Source: a virus
IMG/VR virus record: IMGVR_UViG_3300025809_000007
Length of the DNA stretch: 5,947 bases
Reading direction: 5' to 3' (one strand)
The translations under genes and the position numbers were made by a program. The notes under the pieces are model-generated. The model made no database searches, was not told the DNA's origin, and saw nothing but the letters and a program-made list of their open reading frames with translations. Of the stretch, positions 1 to 5,947 are shown piece after piece. Each line of letters starts with the position of its first letter. Positions within the stretch are counted from its first letter, which is position 1.

Positions 1-127
1 CACCGTCAACGTGATCAGCTAAATCATATCTATTGATTTCTTTTCGCAATTCAGCACGTTCAAGTCGCAATTCAGCTCTTTCCGCGTTTAACTCACGTTC
101 ACGACGTTGTTCATTAATCTGAACATA
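1..127. repeat. Terminal direct repeat, copy 1; exact duplicate of 5821-5947, marking the circular-genome assembly overlap
   Basis: Compared base by base: 1-127 (caccgtcaacgtgatcagct...tcattaatctgaacata) is identical to 5821-5947. An ORF reads through the junction in frame. Confidence 0.95.
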
Positions 128-499
128 CTTCATTACTTTTTCCATATCAGAAGATTGTCCGCGTGTTCTTGGCTCGATATTTGTGTATGATGCTAAATCG
201 CTGTTTTCAACGATTTGCTGAATATCGCGCAGTTTTACAAACGTATCAGATTCTTTATCTGCTTTAATAAGTACGTATGCTGTTTCTAATGTTGCAAATT
301 CTACTTTCGTATAATTTGTAAACATTCCCACTAATTTTGCGTCTTTCATGTTTTTGTTATTTGATACCCAAATTTCAGCAAGTGAATTTGTTGTGCATTC
401 AAATTTAAATCGTGTTGGACGATTTGTTTCAAAATTGATTGTTTGTCCGTTTTTTAGTGGTGACCATTCTGAAATGTTACCATATTGTATTCTATTCAT
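1..499 (-). CDS. Hypothetical protein, N-terminal 166 codons of a 189-aa ORF that wraps the linearisation point; possible scaffolding or other structural protein
   Basis: ATG at 499-497 (minus strand), preceded by AGGA (510-507) with a 7-nt spacer. The frame stays open to base 1: MNRIQYGNISEWSPLKNGQTINFETNRPTRFKFECTTNSLAEIWVSNNKNMKDAKLVGMFTNYTKVEFATLETAYVLIKADKESDTFVKLRDIQQIVENSDLASYTNIEPRTRGQSSDMEKVMKYVQINEQRRERELNAERAELRLERAELRKEINRYDLADHVDG... It continues at 5820 in the circle. It is missing from the ORF track because it has no stop inside this end of the window. I recognise no family motif. Confidence 0.7.
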   Translation of the reverse strand, partial: MNRIQYGNISEWSPLKNGQTINFETNRPTRFKFECTTNSLAEIWVSNNKNMKDAKLVGMFTNYTKVEFATLETAYVLIKADKESDTFVKLRDIQQIVENSDLASYTNIEPRTRGQSSDMEKVMKYVQINEQRRERELNAERAELRLERAELRKEINRYDLADHVDG

Positions 500-562: not shown

Positions 563-2224
563 TTACTTCACAATTCGTGCTTGTTGCACTTGATCAGTAA
601 TGTGTTCGTAATCGCTGTCATCTCCATCGCCCTCTGTTAGAGGTGCTCCGAATTGTGTATTTCCAACGATATTAATGTCGCTTAGTAAGCTTATTTCAAA
701 ACTATCACCTAATTGATCTGCAAACGGTTTTTTATGAAGACCTTGGCATAAATACCAAGTTTCATTTAAAGTCGGGTTAAGCGTTTCTACGCTCCATATT
801 CGACTTCTGTCTTCTGTGTAAGCATCGTTTGCAGGTCGGTAAAATTTTCCGCCAACATTTGCTGTGTCGCGCTTCCATTGTGAATTCATTGGTGCGTACC
901 CAAATGTTGCATCAGGCGTTGCGTGTTCGATATCAATTTCGTTGTTTTTGATCACACGGATTTGCTCTGGATCAAGCAAATCAGGTAACGCGTTCGGTAA
1001 TTCGTCAGGGTCTGACATATGTAAAAAATGATCTTTTTTACGTTCGAATAACCGTTCTGGCATTATAGATGCACATATCAATAATGTACCACCGCAATTC
1101 ATTTGTGGTAATCTGATATTTAAATCAACTGTGGCTGAACCCACTGTTGCTGATTTATCTAAATTTGCGCCATCTGTTGCATATCGCTGATTATAACTAA
1201 TCATTGCTCTTTGTTTTGCCAATAGTATTGGCTGTTGCATAGCGGTTTCTGGCATTCTGATACCTGACATTAACATGTCAATAATTTCGTCGTCCAGTCC
1301 GTTATATTTTTCGCGTATTTTTGCAAATCCTGCTGTTTTTCTTGCTAACTCAATATCAGCAAGTGACATTGTTGCGTTTCCGCCTGTTGTTAGCTCTGCA
1401 TATATTTCGTCAAATAGATACATATCGCCCTGATCTATAATCTCAGCGCCAGACATTGCAGGTGAATACCCTAATGTATCTGTTGTTGTATCATTTGATG
1501 ATGCAGTTCCCGTAATATGATCACGTGAATATTTTGGTGCTTTAACTGGTGCTTGAAATGTCAAACCTTGTAATGACACCTCGCCATCAATTAAAGAGCT
1601 GTCAAAATCGGGAACGATATTTTCCATGCTTGTATTTAGCCAAAATGCTTCTGCTAAAGTATGGTCAAATTGATTTCGTAAGGGCAATGATGGTGATCTT
1701 GCCTTACGCATATGGTTTACAACTTGGTTATAACTTTGAACTAATGTGTTATTTAATTTATCACCTTTAAAGTGAATCCCCATTGTTTGATAAAATTGTC
1801 CGCGACCGTGTTGTGGTAATGTATCCCACGAAGAAGGAGTACCAACGGTAACAGCTTGAGTAGATGTATTTAAATATTTATTTGTTTCAAAAAATGGAAT
1901 TACGCTTCCTGCAGTTCCAACCTTTTTTTGATATGATTTGTTGAATTCATGTAATGATCCACCAAATTGTTCATGTGCCAAATGTGGTACAAAATGGGCA
2001 TAGACTGTTACAGCTATTCCGTTTTGCAACATTTCGGCAGTTTCTTCCATGGCTATATTTACACGTACACGGCCGTTTTTAATGCCGTCTTCTCTGTGTA
2101 GCCATTCTGATTTTAATGGTAAAAATTTACCTGCATCTGCTGATGTCAGCAGACGTCCTTTTACGTTTCGTACCGTTTTAGGTATCGAAATCGGTGCGTT
2201 AGGTATTAGTTCGGTTGCTCTCAT
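563..2224 (-). CDS. Microviridae major capsid protein (VP1 / protein F family), 553 aa
   Basis: It is the longest ORF, with AGGAG (2235-2231) 6 nt upstream of the ATG at 2224. Its size and overall sequence character (N-terminus MRATELIPNAPISIPKTVRNVKGRLLTS..., then ...VTVYAHFVPHLAHEQF...) look like microvirus F/VP1 capsid proteins. The neighbouring pilot and Rep genes fit this call. Confidence 0.93.
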   Translation of the reverse strand: MRATELIPNAPISIPKTVRNVKGRLLTSADAGKFLPLKSEWLHREDGIKNGRVRVNIAMEETAEMLQNGIAVTVYAHFVPHLAHEQFGGSLHEFNKSYQKKVGTAGSVIPFFETNKYLNTSTQAVTVGTPSSWDTLPQHGRGQFYQTMGIHFKGDKLNNTLVQSYNQVVNHMRKARSPSLPLRNQFDHTLAEAFWLNTSMENIVPDFDSSLIDGEVSLQGLTFQAPVKAPKYSRDHITGTASSNDTTTDTLGYSPAMSGAEIIDQGDMYLFDEIYAELTTGGNATMSLADIELARKTAGFAKIREKYNGLDDEIIDMLMSGIRMPETAMQQPILLAKQRAMISYNQRYATDGANLDKSATVGSATVDLNIRLPQMNCGGTLLICASIMPERLFERKKDHFLHMSDPDELPNALPDLLDPEQIRVIKNNEIDIEHATPDATFGYAPMNSQWKRDTANVGGKFYRPANDAYTEDRSRIWSVETLNPTLNETWYLCQGLHKKPFADQLGDSFEISLLSDINIVGNTQFGAPLTEGDGDDSDYEHITDQVQQARIVK

Positions 2225-2282: not shown

Positions 2283-3320
2283 TCAATAATCGCTTCTTAT
2301 AAAGCCATTAATTTCGTCTTGTATTTTACGTGCATTTGTAGTTAATCCACGTATTGATTGATTAAAGAAACCAGTAACATTTTTCATAAATGGTACTCGT
2401 GCGTTTTTTGCTTTGTCTGATAATACAGGGGGTGACTTAACTTTATCTTTAAAAAAGTTAGTTGCGTCATCAGCTAAATTATAAGCTGTTGTATATGCAG
2501 TTGAATAGGGCATGCCTAATTCATTTGAAATAGATAAGAAGGCATCTAAAAAACCATTTCCTGTTTTTTGTTTTACATTTGATGCAGCATTAATACCGTC
2601 TTGTATTACACTATCTGCAATATCTAAATGTGATGTTAAAATAACATCTGCCCAATTATCTCCAAACAAATCTTCCAATTCTTGTGCAGTTAAAGGTGTA
2701 TTGGGTAAAATACGCAAACGTTCAGCTACGGCTTTATTCATTTGTCGTGTATTTTTTCCAATTTGTATGGGTATTGTGTCGCCATATCCTGCATATGGAT
2801 CGTCATCGATACCCATAAGTTGATAGGCTTTTGAGTTTGTCATGATTTCCAAATCTCGTGCTTTTTGTTGATATGCGCCGTCCGTGTAATTTGTAATTCC
2901 ATTACCTAAAGCGCTATAGAAATTAGCACTTGATAATCCGCCTGCATATCCTCTTTGAAACCCTTGACCGCCCGTTGCCCTTAAAGCTGTCAAAGGGTTG
3001 AATCCTGCTCTCTCTGCTTCGTTTCGCAGTTTAACAAGATCTGTTTGTTGCGCATTGTGATGCGCTTTTGTTGCTTTATGATTTCCGTAGGCTTGTAATG
3101 CCCCAGAAATTACAGCTGATGTTCCTCCTCTGGACAATGAATTTTTTAATGTTCCAGAGAATATACCTTGTTTTGCAGTTCCACCTGATGGGTGGCCTGA
3201 TCTATTATTTGTGTATAATGTAGTCTGCGCGCCGCGACCAATAGCGCCGCCGACTTGCCTACCTACTGGGCCGCCATAATAACCGCCAACAGTTTCGCCT
3301 AAGTCTTCCCAAAAACCCAT
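2283..3320 (-). CDS. VP2-like DNA pilot / minor capsid protein, 345 aa
   Basis: The N-terminal third is Gly-rich (MGFWEDLGETVGGYYGGPVGRQVGGAIGRG...). It is followed by ...LVKLRNEAERAGFNPLTALRATGG..., which resembles the conserved AG(L/F)NP segment of gokushovirus-type VP2 proteins. GGGAG (3333-3329) sits 8 nt upstream of the ATG at 3320. The gene is adjacent to the major capsid gene. Confidence 0.82.
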   Translation of the reverse strand: MGFWEDLGETVGGYYGGPVGRQVGGAIGRGAQTTLYTNNRSGHPSGGTAKQGIFSGTLKNSLSRGGTSAVISGALQAYGNHKATKAHHNAQQTDLVKLRNEAERAGFNPLTALRATGGQGFQRGYAGGLSSANFYSALGNGITNYTDGAYQQKARDLEIMTNSKAYQLMGIDDDPYAGYGDTIPIQIGKNTRQMNKAVAERLRILPNTPLTAQELEDLFGDNWADVILTSHLDIADSVIQDGINAASNVKQKTGNGFLDAFLSISNELGMPYSTAYTTAYNLADDATNFFKDKVKSPPVLSDKAKNARVPFMKNVTGFFNQSIRGLTTNARKIQDEINGFIRSDY

Positions 3321-3416
3321 TTATAATACTCCCGAATTTATCAACGTGTCAGAGAATAGGGCAATACCCATAACTATTCCTGCTACTGTTGCGATAATAA
3401 TGTCTTTTAATTTCAT
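3321..3416 (-). CDS. Small hydrophobic protein, 31 aa, one predicted transmembrane helix
   Basis: Hand translation gives MKLKDIIIATVAGIVMGIALFSDTLINSGVL*. A strong SD, GGAGGTGGA (3429-3421), precedes the ATG at 3416. That ATG overlaps the upstream ORF's TGA (ATGA, 3416-3413). Its TAA (3323-3321) directly abuts the VP2 ATG (3320). It is too short for the ORF track. Confidence 0.55.
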   Translation of the reverse strand: MKLKDIIIATVAGIVMGIALFSDTLINSGVL

Positions 3417-3592
3417 TTGATCCACCTCCGTGTTATGAGGTCGATTGATACGCCCGCAAGAGCGGTAAATCCCAAAACGATACTATCTGTAGTACCGACT
3501 GCAATTCCTGCTCCAGCTAAGCTAGATCCCAAAATTGTTCCCATACGGGAAATTATGGGTTTAAGAATTTGTTTAATTAGTAGAATTTGCAA
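3413..3592 (-). CDS. Small membrane protein, 59 aa from a TTG start (43 aa if the ATG at 3544 is used); probably two hydrophobic segments and a basic C-terminus
   Basis: Hand translation gives (M)QILLIKQILKPIISRMGTILGSSLAGAGIAVGTTDSIVLGFTALAGVSIDLITRRWIK*. AAGGAG (3604-3599) lies 6 nt upstream of the TTG at 3592, and an in-frame stop sits just upstream at 3598-3596. The stop overlaps the next ORF's start (ATGA). It contains a Gly/Ala-rich small-residue stretch (GSSLAGAGIAVG). Confidence 0.5.
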   Translation of the reverse strand: MQILLIKQILKPIISRMGTILGSSLAGAGIAVGTTDSIVLGFTALAGVSIDLITRRWIK

Positions 3593-3789: not shown

Positions 3790-4095
3790 TTAACACCAAG
3801 GTATATATACGCCGCCGCCGCCGCGGCCTTTGCGTTTGTTATCACGTGGTTTATCCACACATCGTACACGCAAGGGTTTTTGCCTTGAAGATGGGTCATC
3901 TGTGTTTTTCCTTTGGCGTTCGCCAGATTGTGTGGCATTTGAAGAACGTTGTGGCAACGTTATCGGCGCAACTAGTATTTTGCTTGTTCTTAAAATGGTA
4001 TTTTTGCCCAAGGTACCTCTTGGGCTGTTTTTCGTGATTTTATTTGTGTACCTTGTTTTATTGTTTTTACGACCTCTGGTCTTTGCTCTTGCCAT
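3790..4095 (-). CDS. Highly basic 101-aa protein overlapping the Rep 3' end out of frame; candidate ssDNA-binding/packaging protein (J / VP5-like role)
   Basis: GAGGA (4106-4102) lies 6 nt upstream of the ATG at 4095. The protein, MARAKTRGRKNNKTRYTNKITKNSPRG...KPRDNKRKGRGGGGVYIPWC, has about 27 K+R against 5 D+E. It overlaps Rep for 106 nt, then covers about 200 nt that would otherwise be non-coding. A basic alternate-frame ORF could arise by chance in A-rich coding sequence. Confidence 0.5.
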   Translation of the reverse strand: MARAKTRGRKNNKTRYTNKITKNSPRGTLGKNTILRTSKILVAPITLPQRSSNATQSGERQRKNTDDPSSRQKPLRVRCVDKPRDNKRKGRGGGGVYIPWC

Positions 4096-5039
4096 ATTTG
4101 ATCCTCAGTTATTACTTTTATGTGGTCATCATAATCATTTTCCCAATAATATATTGGGATATCGTCATAGGTGCCTTCGACTAAATACATGCTTTCATTT
4201 AGTCCTTTTCCTGTTTGTTCTTGCCATTCTTCGACATACTTTACAGGTCTGTAATGTAGTCGTTTTTCTAATTCATCATCGGTGTAGTCTATATGGGTTT
4301 TTTTATCGATATATTCGTCAATATATTCGGAATTCCATTTGTAATCATGGGTTTGATCCCATTGTTCCATGAATTCGTCTAAAAAGTTTTCTCTTGTTTT
4401 TCCCATCATATAGAACTTTTTTTCGTTGTTTTGATTATCTTTTATGTTTTTGATTTTGTAATATGGATTTTGCGGGGCTAATCCATTTTGTACGTATAGT
4501 TTGGCTAATTCTTTAAAGAATTGGTGTCCGATTGGTGGTTTTTTTGACATACTAAAGCATTTTTCGCTTTGTATTTGGTCTTGATCTTTTAATATGTACT
4601 TAAGTGCATATCTAAAACCCTTCCAATCTGGTTGTTGAAAATAGACGAGGCCATTTTTCCAAAACTTCCAACGTATCCGTTTATCTTGTTCCACGTCAGG
4701 ATATGCGCCGGTGAAGAATAACAGGCAGTGAAAGTGGCTTCTCCCCTTTTTTGACCCGTATTCTCCAACGACACAATATCTGACTTTATATTTTCGACGT
4801 AGCCTTTTCATAAAGTCTTGAACGTCTTTGTAAACTAACGCTATCGTGTGTACTTCCTCTTTTCTCTCCGCCATTATTTTGTCGTCGTAGGTTAGTGTTA
4901 CTGAGTACGTTTTCGTTGAAAACATACTCTCAGCAGTGCATCGCGCTGTCCAGTCATTGACTTTCGTTGCTCTACACTGCCAGCATTGTGAACAACCCAC
5001 CTGAATACCGCTATCTAATGTTGAAGGGTTCAAGCACAT
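3990..5039 (-). CDS. Rolling-circle replication initiator, HUH endonuclease (Microviridae VP4 / protein A family), 349 aa
   Basis: All three RCR motifs are present. Motif I is SVTLTY (aa 46-51, nt 4904-4887). Motif II (HUH) is HFHCLLF (aa 102-108; H codons checked at 4736-4734 and 4730-4728). Motif III is YALKYILK with two tyrosines three residues apart (Y144 at 4610-4608, Y148 at 4598-4596), as in phiX174 protein A. The N-terminus has a Cys cluster: MC-x13-C-x2-C-x2-C. Confidence 0.95.
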   Translation of the reverse strand: MCLNPSTLDSGIQVGCSQCWQCRATKVNDWTARCTAESMFSTKTYSVTLTYDDKIMAERKEEVHTIALVYKDVQDFMKRLRRKYKVRYCVVGEYGSKKGRSHFHCLLFFTGAYPDVEQDKRIRWKFWKNGLVYFQQPDWKGFRYALKYILKDQDQIQSEKCFSMSKKPPIGHQFFKELAKLYVQNGLAPQNPYYKIKNIKDNQNNEKKFYMMGKTRENFLDEFMEQWDQTHDYKWNSEYIDEYIDKKTHIDYTDDELEKRLHYRPVKYVEEWQEQTGKGLNESMYLVEGTYDDIPIYYWENDYDDHIKVITEDQIWQEQRPEVVKTIKQGTQIKSRKTAQEVPWAKIPF

Positions 5040-5100
5040 ATCGATTTCCGGTGGTTTGTGTCACTAATGCATATATCTAACAAGTAGTATGGTTTTGCTC

Positions 5101-5145
5101 GACGGGAACGAACTCCAATACTTGGAGTTTCCGTTCGTTCCCGTC
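5101..5145 (-). other. Long interrupted stem-loop between the peptidase stop and the Rep start
   Basis: gacgggaacgaac (5101-5113) is the exact reverse complement of gttcgttcccgtc (5133-5145), giving 13 bp. An inner helix pairs tccaa (5114-5118) with ttgga (5122-5126) around a tac loop. An alternative register pairs 10 bp plus 8 bp. Either way about 18 bp pair within 45 nt. Confidence 0.7.
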
Positions 5146-5163
5146 TGAGTTTGTTCAAACTCA
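5146..5163 (-). other. Short hairpin enclosing the peptidase stop codon
   Basis: tgagttt (5146-5152) pairs with aaactca (5157-5163) around a gttc loop. It directly abuts the long hairpin. Confidence 0.4.
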
Positions 5164-5766
5164 TTTTTTTGCCCATAAGGTTTTTAAGCGTGCTTGAGTT
5201 TCAAGTTGCTTTTTTGTTAATACCCTTATTTGTGGCGCGCATATTTGGCGCCAATTTTTTAGTTCCCAGTGTGCAGGATCCCAAAAATCCCAATCATCAC
5301 CGCTGATTAGTTTTACATTGCATTTTCGCGCACATTCTTTCTGAATGGCGATCATGCAATCCCATTGCTTTTTTGACAAATTCCAACAATTTTTTGCGTG
5401 AATTATATCAATTGCGCAACCGTATTGGTGCGCGCTTTGTCCAGGCACAGCCTTTGACACGCCTTTGTCATACAGTTCTTGTTGTCGCGCGTGTGAGCGC
5501 TTCAGTTCGAAGGCTCGAACTGGTATATCACGCAATTTCATTGCTTTATGCACAGACTTCCAAAATTTTATTATATCGGGGTGTACACCCTCAAAATTTA
5601 ATGTGGTGTGCATTTGTTTATATTTGAACTGTTTCATTGCCTCTGGGTCGGCAAGCGACCTCATGGCTTCTATATGATCCTTATGTACCAATGGTTCCTC
5701 ACGATTGAAATAATGGATACGGTCTAAAAACCGTATCCATCTAAACCACTTATTCGGTGGTTTCAT
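5161..5766 (-). CDS. Peptidase M15-family (LAS-type zinc D,D- or L-Ala-D-Glu peptidase), endolysin-like cell-wall hydrolase, 201 aa
   Basis: The layout is that of M15 phage peptidases such as the T5 endolysin. It reads ...GVHPDIIKFWKSVHKAMKLRDIPVRAFELKRSHARQQELYDKGVSKAVPGQSAHQYGCAIDI...ISGDDWDFWDPAHWE.... This gives the Zn-ligand pattern H-x6-D (H113 at 5430-5428, D120 at 5409-5407, both codons checked) plus D-x2-H-x-E (D163, H166, E168). GAGGAAG (5782-5776) lies 9 nt upstream of the ATG at 5766. I see no N-terminal signal peptide. Confidence 0.85.
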   Translation of the reverse strand: MKPPNKWFRWIRFLDRIHYFNREEPLVHKDHIEAMRSLADPEAMKQFKYKQMHTTLNFEGVHPDIIKFWKSVHKAMKLRDIPVRAFELKRSHARQQELYDKGVSKAVPGQSAHQYGCAIDIIHAKNCWNLSKKQWDCMIAIQKECARKCNVKLISGDDWDFWDPAHWELKNWRQICAPQIRVLTKKQLETQARLKTLWAKK

Positions 5767-5947
5767 CGTTTTTTGCTTCCTCTTTTAGTAAGCTTTGTTC
5801 CTTGAGCGGTGGTATGTCTACACCGTCAACGTGATCAGCTAAATCATATCTATTGATTTCTTTTCGCAATTCAGCACGTTCAAGTCGCAATTCAGCTCTT
5901 TCCGCGTTTAACTCACGTTCACGACGTTGTTCATTAATCTGAACATA
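5750..5947 (-). CDS. C-terminal part of the wrap-around 189-aa hypothetical protein (same gene as 1-499; 5821-5947 duplicates 1-127)
   Basis: The reading frame from 127/5947 continues through 5820: ...DHVDGVDIPPLKEQSLLKEEAKNDETTE*. The stop is TAA at 5752-5750, which overlaps the peptidase start by 17 nt. Confidence 0.7.
   Translation of the reverse strand, partial: YVQINEQRRERELNAERAELRLERAELRKEINRYDLADHVDGVDIPPLKEQSLLKEEAKNDETTE
5821..5947. repeat. Terminal direct repeat, copy 2; exact duplicate of 1-127
   Basis: Same 127-nt string as 1-127. It implies a circular unit of 5,820 nt. Confidence 0.95.

Follow-up and report, generated by a model that had tools for sequence, protein, structure and literature searches.

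The 5,947-nucleotide (nt) viral DNA filed as IMG/VR record IMGVR_UViG_3300025809_000007 (the whole stretch is referred to here as the window) encodes on its minus strand a protein of 201 amino acids (aa), specified at 5161..5766 (ATG at 5766-5764, stop at 5163-5161), which profile matches and a predicted structure identify as an M15/LAS zinc peptidase with the LAS fold and a complete active site. We consider it quite likely that this protein is a soluble cytoplasmic zinc metallopeptidase acting as an endolysin and released via a holin-like lesion. The gene is already known, having been published as near-core in a microvirus subfamily that is described and includes cultured members. A first-pass annotation, made from the sequence alone, had proposed an M15 zinc peptidase from this open reading frame (ORF) without stating its strand, and both the frame, which starts at an ATG, and the family assignment are borne out here. 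An exact 127-nt direct repeat joins the two ends of the record (1..127 = 5821..5947), the assembly signature of a circle, and the record therefore represents a circular genome of 5,820 nt, of which the 606-nt peptidase gene takes up 10.4%, in agreement with the share of about 10% estimated earlier.

The ORF is a real gene under strong purifying selection. Compared with its closest IMG/VR relative (L004; protein 97% and DNA 90–94% identical), it differs at 28 codons synonymously and at 6 non-synonymously, giving a ratio of non-synonymous to synonymous substitution rates (dN/dS) of 0.069; against relatives at 50–64% identity the ratio is 0.13–0.18. A Shine-Dalgarno-like GAGGA (5778..5782, minus strand) lies 11 nt upstream of the ATG, within the 3′ end of an upstream 189-aa ORF that overlaps the peptidase gene by 17 nt. 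Relatives are encoded by at least 196 IMG/VR contigs, almost all of 4–6.5 kb, and a profile run against 1.84 billion cluster representatives returned 3,845 clusters at E ≤ 1e-3, of which 160 reach E ≤ 1e-30. The alternative, a frame open by chance or a decayed and functionless one, would have only the general caution that ORF lists are mechanical to recommend it; this breadth of distribution, the low dN/dS, profile matches above curated thresholds and an active site nearly invariant in 75 homologues refute that explanation.

In Pfam, within clan Peptidase_MD, the protein matches VanY (29.4 bits, E = 7.8e-7) and Peptidase_M15_4 (26.2 bits, E = 1.2e-5), both passing, by small margins, the gathering score of 25 that applies to each. 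The PHROG 465 ‘endolysin’ profile matches residues 19–184 at 6.9e-20. The top three sequence matches in the PDB, namely LysECD7 (8q2g, 1.4e-8), the RB49 peptidase (23ri, 5.6e-8) and ChiX (4e-7), are all L-Ala-D-Glu endopeptidases, with Ply500 and T5 EndoT5 following as weaker matches. From an alignment of 11 sequences AlphaFold2 gave a model (mean predicted local distance difference test score, pLDDT, 77) that is confident at residues 60–170, where block means are about 73–94, and this region corresponds to a predicted catalytic LAS core at residues 59–170 (5257..5592, minus strand) that also emerges from Foldseek and from residue conservation. All 19 PDB structures matched by the model in Foldseek at E ≤ 1e-3 are LAS enzymes. 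ChiX is the best of them (3.8e-7; target-normalised template modelling score 0.72, root-mean-square deviation 2.5 Å), followed by LysECD7 (1.5e-6), RB49 and Ply500, so that the top four are again L-Ala-D-Glu endopeptidases; LysB4, VanXYc, LdcB, VanY and T5 rank below Ply500, and Hedgehog N-terminal domains appear in the tail of the list at E of about 0.4, as expected for a LAS fold, in which helices flank a central antiparallel sheet. The resemblance to T5-type L-Ala-D-Glu endolysins that the first-pass annotation had pointed out is thus upheld by sequence and by the modelled fold, the closest relatives being enzymes of the T5, Ply500 and ChiX type.

The active site is complete. In ChiX, His68, Asp75 and His123 are the zinc ligands, Asp120 is catalytic (the D120A variant is inactive) and Arg47 binds substrate (ChiX paper, PDB 5OPZ). 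In a HMMER alignment, in which the numbering of the ChiX PDB chain is offset by 4, these residues (R47/H68/D75/D120/H123) align to R90, H113, D120, D163 and H166 of the window protein, and R90 also corresponds to Arg71 of VanX. We therefore predict, from this alignment, zinc ligands at H113, D120 and H166, a general base at D163 and a substrate-binding role for R90. Every one of the 75 microviral homologues has R90, Q95, H113, A118, D120 and G156, while D163 and H166 are kept in 74 of them, which supports the His-Asp-His triad named in the first-pass annotation. The residues fall in three motifs: KRSHARQQELY (R90-S-x3-Q95-x2-L-Y), SAHQYGCAID (H113, as S111-x-H113, and D120) and DPAHWE (D163-x-x-H166). 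The second and third had been read correctly, and the first had been given one residue short, as R-S-x3-Q-x-LY.

The names and lower-ranking matches of this family leave room for a different activity, namely that of a D,D- or L,D-carboxypeptidase of the VanY/LdcB kind, which would trim stem peptides and modify the wall, for superinfection exclusion or through altered cross-linking, in place of lysing the cell. Both matching Pfam families are named D-alanyl-D-alanine carboxypeptidase, and Foldseek gives significant matches to the structures of VanXYc, LdcB and VanY. The best matches by sequence and by structure are nevertheless all L-Ala-D-Glu endopeptidases, the PHROG annotation is endolysin, and the cut-offs of the NCBIfam models for the glycopeptide-resistance families vanY_BG (16.6 bits, cut-off 400) and vanXY (16.2 bits, cut-off 250) are missed by a wide margin. 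A lytic virus of 5.8 kb would also have little room for non-essential wall trimming, and we regard a carboxypeptidase role as very unlikely.

Genes of this kind have been in the literature for some time. Microviral M15 peptidases were first described in 2012, together with a proposed endolysin role (Roux et al., PLoS One 2012, PMC3394797). The order VP1-peptidase/amidase-VP4-VP2 is that of Families 7 and 14, and the lysis-associated genes found between VP1 and VP4 are conserved (Kirchberger, Martinez and Ochman, mBio 2022, PMC9239249), and most Occultatumvirinae genomes carry the peptidase, which is absent only in subgroups 6 and 7 and in CRPss-154 (Zhang et al., Commun Biol 2024, PMC11499846). 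ICBM5 and its relatives likewise usually have a gene for a ‘lysis protein’ (Zucker et al. 2022), and the basic gene set given in the Rhizobium phage paper consists of mcp, rep and lys. The best matches of the window protein in a phage collection are the ‘M15 family metallopeptidase’ of CRPss-152, CRPss-151, CRPss-155 and CRPss-153 (50–52% identity), followed by dozens of Tortoise and Flyfo microviruses, a Rhizobium microvirus ‘endolysin protein’ and Sulfitobacter phage ICBM5. Cultured carriers comprise the Roseobacter phages CRPss-151/152/153/155/251, the Rhizobium phages RHph_* and Sulfitobacter ICBM5, in which the product is variously labelled M15 metallopeptidase, endolysin or lysis protein; host lysis is seen with ICBM5 and with those Rhizobium and Roseobacter isolates that carry the homologue. 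The statement of the first-pass annotation that characterised microviruses either lyse through a single gene or have no identified lysis gene does not survive this record. Its remark that M15-like ORFs occur in a minority of metagenome-assembled microviruses does not hold within this clade, where they are part of the usual gene order. Its further statement that no functional characterisation was known stands in part. The wall hydrolase Gp7 of Ebor, a Rhodobacter microvirus (‘Tainavirinae’), has been purified and is active in zymogram and plate assays (mBio 2025, PMC11980548), yet it is an amidase, and our literature search, which covered few subscription-journal papers, found no enzymology of any microviral M15 protein. 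Ebor Gp7 was considered as a homologue of the window protein and rejected: BLASTP gives E = 3.3, there is no Pfam match, and a PDB search identifies it as a T7-lysozyme amidase.

An endolysin role, as preferred here, agrees with the location of the gene in the canonical VP1-peptidase-VP4 slot of its virus group and with the published view of it as the lysis gene of the clade (PMC11499846, PMC3394797; Zucker et al. 2022; Rhizobium phage paper). The enzyme would reach the periplasm late in infection and cut the peptide stems of peptidoglycan, and the ensuing failure of the wall would release virions. The bond cut is most likely L-Ala-D-Glu, because this is the one cleaved by all of the nearest characterised relatives (ChiX, LysECD7, the RB49 and T5 peptidases, and Ply500). 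The protein is strongly basic (net charge +16) and, as the first-pass annotation had stated, has no signal peptide; a scan for hydrophobic segments gave a best 19-residue Kyte-Doolittle mean of 0.37. Having neither a signal peptide nor a membrane anchor, the enzyme would therefore need a lesion in the membrane.

The best candidates for forming such a lesion are two small membrane proteins, whose ORFs had also been pointed out previously (3413..3592 and 3321..3425, minus strand) and which may constitute a holin or a holin-plus-accessory pair. The first, of 59 aa (3413..3592), starts at a TTG with AAGGAG 7 nt upstream. It carries a conserved KPIIxRxG motif and two hydrophobic segments rich in Gly and Ala, and its C-terminus is basic. 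It is homologous from residue 1 to gp03 of CRPss-152, and its family occurs in 55/82 related loci, with P12, R16, G18 and D51 invariant. The second is a predicted single-pass protein of 31 aa (3321..3416, minus strand; 34 aa if translation starts at the GTG at 3425) with a 19-residue Kyte-Doolittle mean of 2.09; its family is present in 27 related loci, several members of which start at ATG. Strong Shine-Dalgarno sequences precede both ORFs. They are located just upstream of VP2 and are translationally coupled, the ATG of the 31-aa ORF overlapping the TGA of the 59-aa ORF (ATGA) and its TAA abutting the VP2 ATG (TAAATG). Both proteins are annotated as hypothetical in cultured relatives. A Pfam and PHROG search of the small membrane proteins gave only recurrent sub-threshold holin matches, Phage_holin_10 being hit weakly in 6/18 members of the 59-aa family (best 6e-4, all below the gathering score), and a literature search on microviral holins, again covering few subscription-journal papers, found none. 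From their predicted topology and conservation, the 59-aa and 31-aa proteins are reasonable candidates for a holin and an accessory. In one related contig, L014 (IMGVR_UViG_3300027967_000149), the 59-aa sequence occurs twice, at 5557..5952 and 25..216, once within a 131-aa ORF with an internal repeat; this doubling is probably a terminal-redundancy assembly artefact and not a true duplication.

Several observations weigh against an endolysin released in this manner. The candidacy of the small proteins depends on topology, conservation and sub-threshold matches, and small hydrophobic proteins readily produce spurious matches of this kind; the 59-aa protein of the window itself has no holin match, and neither candidate gene is adjacent to that of the peptidase. 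On the enzymatic side, the bond specificity is drawn from neighbours at only 25–31% identity, the matching Pfam families bear the name of D-Ala-D-Ala carboxypeptidases, and our literature search found no enzymology for the microviral M15 class, the only verified microviral wall hydrolase being Ebor Gp7, an unrelated amidase. CRPss-154 and subgroups 6 and 7 do without a peptidase (PMC11499846), and peptidase-free lysis is therefore possible in the clade. Finally, no spanin-like component that would disrupt the outer membrane was identified in the genome. A more elaborate version of the endolysin reading, in which the M15 endolysin, the 59-aa holin and its coupled 31-aa partner (antiholin- or spanin-like) form a dispersed miniature lysis system, new for single-stranded DNA (ssDNA) phages, with the C-terminal tail of the peptidase in this lineage aiding the breach of the outer membrane, is conceivable, and we hold it to be rather doubtful. 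If true, it would mean that a large clade of microviruses lyses like tailed phages, and not by inhibiting wall synthesis in the manner of phiX174, with components of near-minimal size.

The extensions that flank the catalytic core differ in conservation, the N-terminal one being more conserved than the C-terminal tail. The N-terminal extension comprises residues 1–58 (5593..5766, minus strand) and includes at residues 6–17 (5716..5751, minus strand) a Trp/Arg-rich motif, K-W-F-R-W-I-R-F-L-D-R-I (KWFRWIRFLDRI), which is nearly invariant in close relatives and recognisable in 34/75 homologues. Residues 28–58 are common to most M15 homologues and to the PHROG endolysin profile, whose alignment begins at residue 19. 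AlphaFold2 predicts a helix at residues 6–19, with low confidence, as for residues 1–30 as a whole. The hydrophobic moment of the motif (0.62) is the highest in the protein, yet it falls within the range of shuffles (mean 0.54, 95th percentile 0.67), the reference being the best 18-residue window in shuffled versions of the protein. Membrane association, regulation and virion targeting are candidate roles for the motif.

The C-terminal tail, which the first-pass annotation had emphasised as cationic and plausibly amphipathic, covers residues 171–201 (NWRQ...WAKK; 5164..5256, minus strand). The first description is accurate, with a net charge of +7 over 31 residues; the second is not supported, as the helical hydrophobic moment is 0.16–0.28 versus the shuffle mean of 0.54. 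A tail of similar sequence is found only in the closest relatives (L004, P0001, P0002 and P0003). Beyond W172 the 75 homologues have a median of 15 aa with a median net charge of 0, and in 25 of them, CRPss-152 among these, this segment is at most 8 aa long. An amphipathic helix is rejected here on the low hydrophobic moment and poor conservation, and the tail is a lineage-specific appendage and not a feature of the family, of uncertain value.

Both extensions bear on the possibility that the enzyme crosses the inner membrane unaided, its Trp/Arg N-terminal helix, joined in this lineage by the cationic tail, perturbing membranes so that a single protein would serve as the whole lysis module, as would suit a tiny genome, and help to breach the outer membrane as well. 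Some Gram-negative endolysins do carry membrane-active terminal helices, and the Trp/Arg composition of KWFRWIRFLDRI is typical of membrane-active peptides, in keeping with its leading hydrophobic moment and with the charge of the tail. This moment is however unexceptional among shuffles and that of the tail is low, the motif is confined to fewer than half of the homologues (the 34/75 given above), and 25/75, including cultured lytic phages, have a short tail or none. With low model confidence at residues 1–30, and with conserved small membrane proteins on hand as conventional holin candidates, we judge holin-free translocation to be improbable.

The same N-terminal extension could instead be a packaging or capsid-binding signal, which would suit a peptidase that mainly serves entry: a few packaged copies would open the wall locally for VP2-dependent passage of the ssDNA, and lysis would proceed by other means. 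Ebor Gp7, a hydrolase of another class, has been detected in trace amounts in purified virions by liquid chromatography–tandem mass spectrometry (PMC11980548), and the net charge of +16 on the window protein is like that of DNA-associated virion proteins. The trace amount of Gp7 is, however, compatible with carry-over, and those clade members that lack the gene must still enter cells. Entry of the phiX174 type requires no hydrolase. The nearest characterised relatives, moreover, act from within, as endolysins or as a secretion-linked hydrolase, and the M15 gene is separate from VP2, in a slot described as lysis-associated (PMC9239249). An entry enzyme is accordingly an unlikely description of this protein, and an endolysin made in the cytoplasm remains the preferred one.

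The virus itself is, by its VP1 matches and gene order, an ordinary member of the Occultatumvirinae (Kirchberger Family 7), a placement made from these two features. The genome has a GC content of 38.4%, all large ORFs are found on the window's minus strand, and the circular gene order on that strand is VP1, ORF189, M15, VP4, basic ORF, TM59, TM31, VP2, where TM59 and TM31 are the two small membrane proteins. The major capsid protein VP1 (553 aa, 563..2224, minus strand) shares 60–61% identity along its whole length with its counterparts in the cultured Roseobacter phages CRPss-151 (60.9%) and CRPss-155, and all 72 phage records that it matches are microviruses of the alphaproteobacterial (Roseobacter, Rhizobium, Tortoise, Flyfo and Ciona) group. 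The virus probably belongs to the low-GC marine subgroup of the CRPss phages or close to it, and its host is probably a marine alphaproteobacterium. The replication initiator VP4 (Rep, 349 aa, 3990..5039, minus strand) matches Pfam REP_ORF2-G2P at 1.3e-16 and PHROG 942 at 2.3e-40. The 345-aa ORF at 2283..3320 (minus strand) is a putative DNA pilot protein VP2 by its position and Gly-rich N-terminus; Pfam and PHROG profile searches gave no direct match, and its location, flanked by the small membrane ORF and VP1, is that of CRPss-152 gp04. VP2 is present in all six roseophages (PMC11499846). The 189-aa ORF between VP1 and the M15 gene crosses the junction of the circle on the minus strand (start 499, through 1/5820, stop 5750, its 3′ part being 5750..5947) and is homologous to CRPss-152 gp06; a family search matched it to no known family or function. 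Because of the terminal redundancy, linearisation splits this ORF, and a linear ORF scan misses it.

Two further elements lie near the peptidase gene. Directly after its stop, within the 121 nt that separate it from the Rep (VP4) start at 5039, a stable hairpin (5098..5149, minus strand) of about 21 bp in two stacked stems has an ssDNA folding energy of –20.3 kcal/mol (z = –6.85, with 0/200 shuffles as stable), and in 42/50 near-complete relatives the 80-nt segment following the M15 stop ranks within the top 5% of windows of that genome for stability. Its 3′ flank contains no U/T tract. The hairpin could be an mRNA 3′ stabiliser or terminator (compare the intergenic hairpins of phiX174), or a complementary-strand origin. 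Scans of the window for promoters and terminators gave fewer promoter-like sites than expected from shuffles and listed terminator-like sites that are on the non-coding strand. A very basic ORF of 101 aa (3790..4095, minus strand; net charge +22) is overprinted on the last 106 nt of the Rep 3′ end, and its C-terminal motif, RC-x-D-x-P-x-D-N-K-x-K-G-x-G-G-G...(V/I)PWC, recurs in CRPss-152 gp02 (E = 1e-10) and in Ebor Gp10 (E = 1e-5). Ebor Gp10 is a virion protein by mass spectrometry and a proposed neutraliser of DNA charge (PMC11980548), and the 101-aa product is likely a DNA-binding virion protein of the phage.

As a discovery, the peptidase carries little weight, M15 proteins of microviruses having been in the literature since 2012 and a near-identical protein being present in public databases. 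The interest that remains is in the two conserved small membrane proteins, as holin candidates, and in the conserved N-terminal Trp/Arg motif. Mechanistically, it concerns the activity of the M15 class, the bond cut, how an enzyme without a signal crosses the inner membrane in a virus of about eight genes, and the outer-membrane step. As small, basic Gram-negative lysins, the microviral M15 enzymes may also be of interest for antibacterial lysin engineering.

The closest known system is that of CRPss-152, whose gp07 (XAO36516.1) shares 52% identity with the window protein over residues 14–173 and matches the same Pfam families. The peptidase occupies the same slot in both genomes, between VP1/ORF-178 and VP4, and its companions are alike: the 59-aa membrane protein, the 189-aa ORF and the overprinted basic ORF all have homologues in CRPss-152; the CRPss roseophages are also, like the virus of the window, low-GC marine microviruses. 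Of the two, in contrast, only the window protein has a cationic C-terminal tail, of 29 aa, and it is also closer to the N-terminal Trp/Arg motif than gp07 is. Capsid identity between the window and the CRPss phages is only 60%, indicating a different species or genus. Further afield, the lysis-associated peptidases and amidases of Families 2, 7 and 14 and the genes described in 2012 share with the window a horizontally acquired wall peptidase, proposed as an endolysin, in an ssDNA phage of ~5–6 kb (PMC9239249, PMC3394797), and the Family 7 order VP1-peptidase-VP4-VP2 is the one found here (PMC9239249). The genes of 2012 differ in being Peptidase_M15_3 (PF08291), sporadic in gut gokusho- and alpaviruses, whereas the window gene is of the VanY/Peptidase_M15_4 type and near-core in its clade.

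Ebor provides a parallel in layout and not in enzyme class. Like the virus of the window, it is an alphaproteobacterial microvirus whose wall hydrolase gene lies between VP1 and VP4; the enzyme has no signal peptide, and the gene for a small membrane protein is located in another part of the genome. Gp7 is however a T7-lysozyme-type N-acetylmuramoyl-L-alanine amidase (1aro, 3.6e-18) and not a LAS peptidase, and it has zymogram evidence of a sort that we did not find for the M15 enzymes. The enzymes that share the LAS fold with the modelled window protein are instead ChiX of Serratia marcescens (5OPZ), LysECD7 (8Q2G), RB49 (23RI), EndoT5 (2MXZ) and Ply500 (2VO9), presumably all members of MEROPS subfamily M15C. 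They have in common with it the H-x6-D...H triad, an Asp three residues before the second His, the Arg-x4-Gln motif and the absence of a signal peptide. Identity to them is only 25–31% over about 115 residues, and they are single domains of 125–150 aa, to which the window protein adds about 58 N-terminal and about 30 C-terminal residues; the Trp/Arg motif KWFRWIRFLDRI is absent from these characterised single-domain L-Ala-D-Glu peptidases. ChiX, likewise without a signal peptide, depends on a holin-like partner (ChiX paper).

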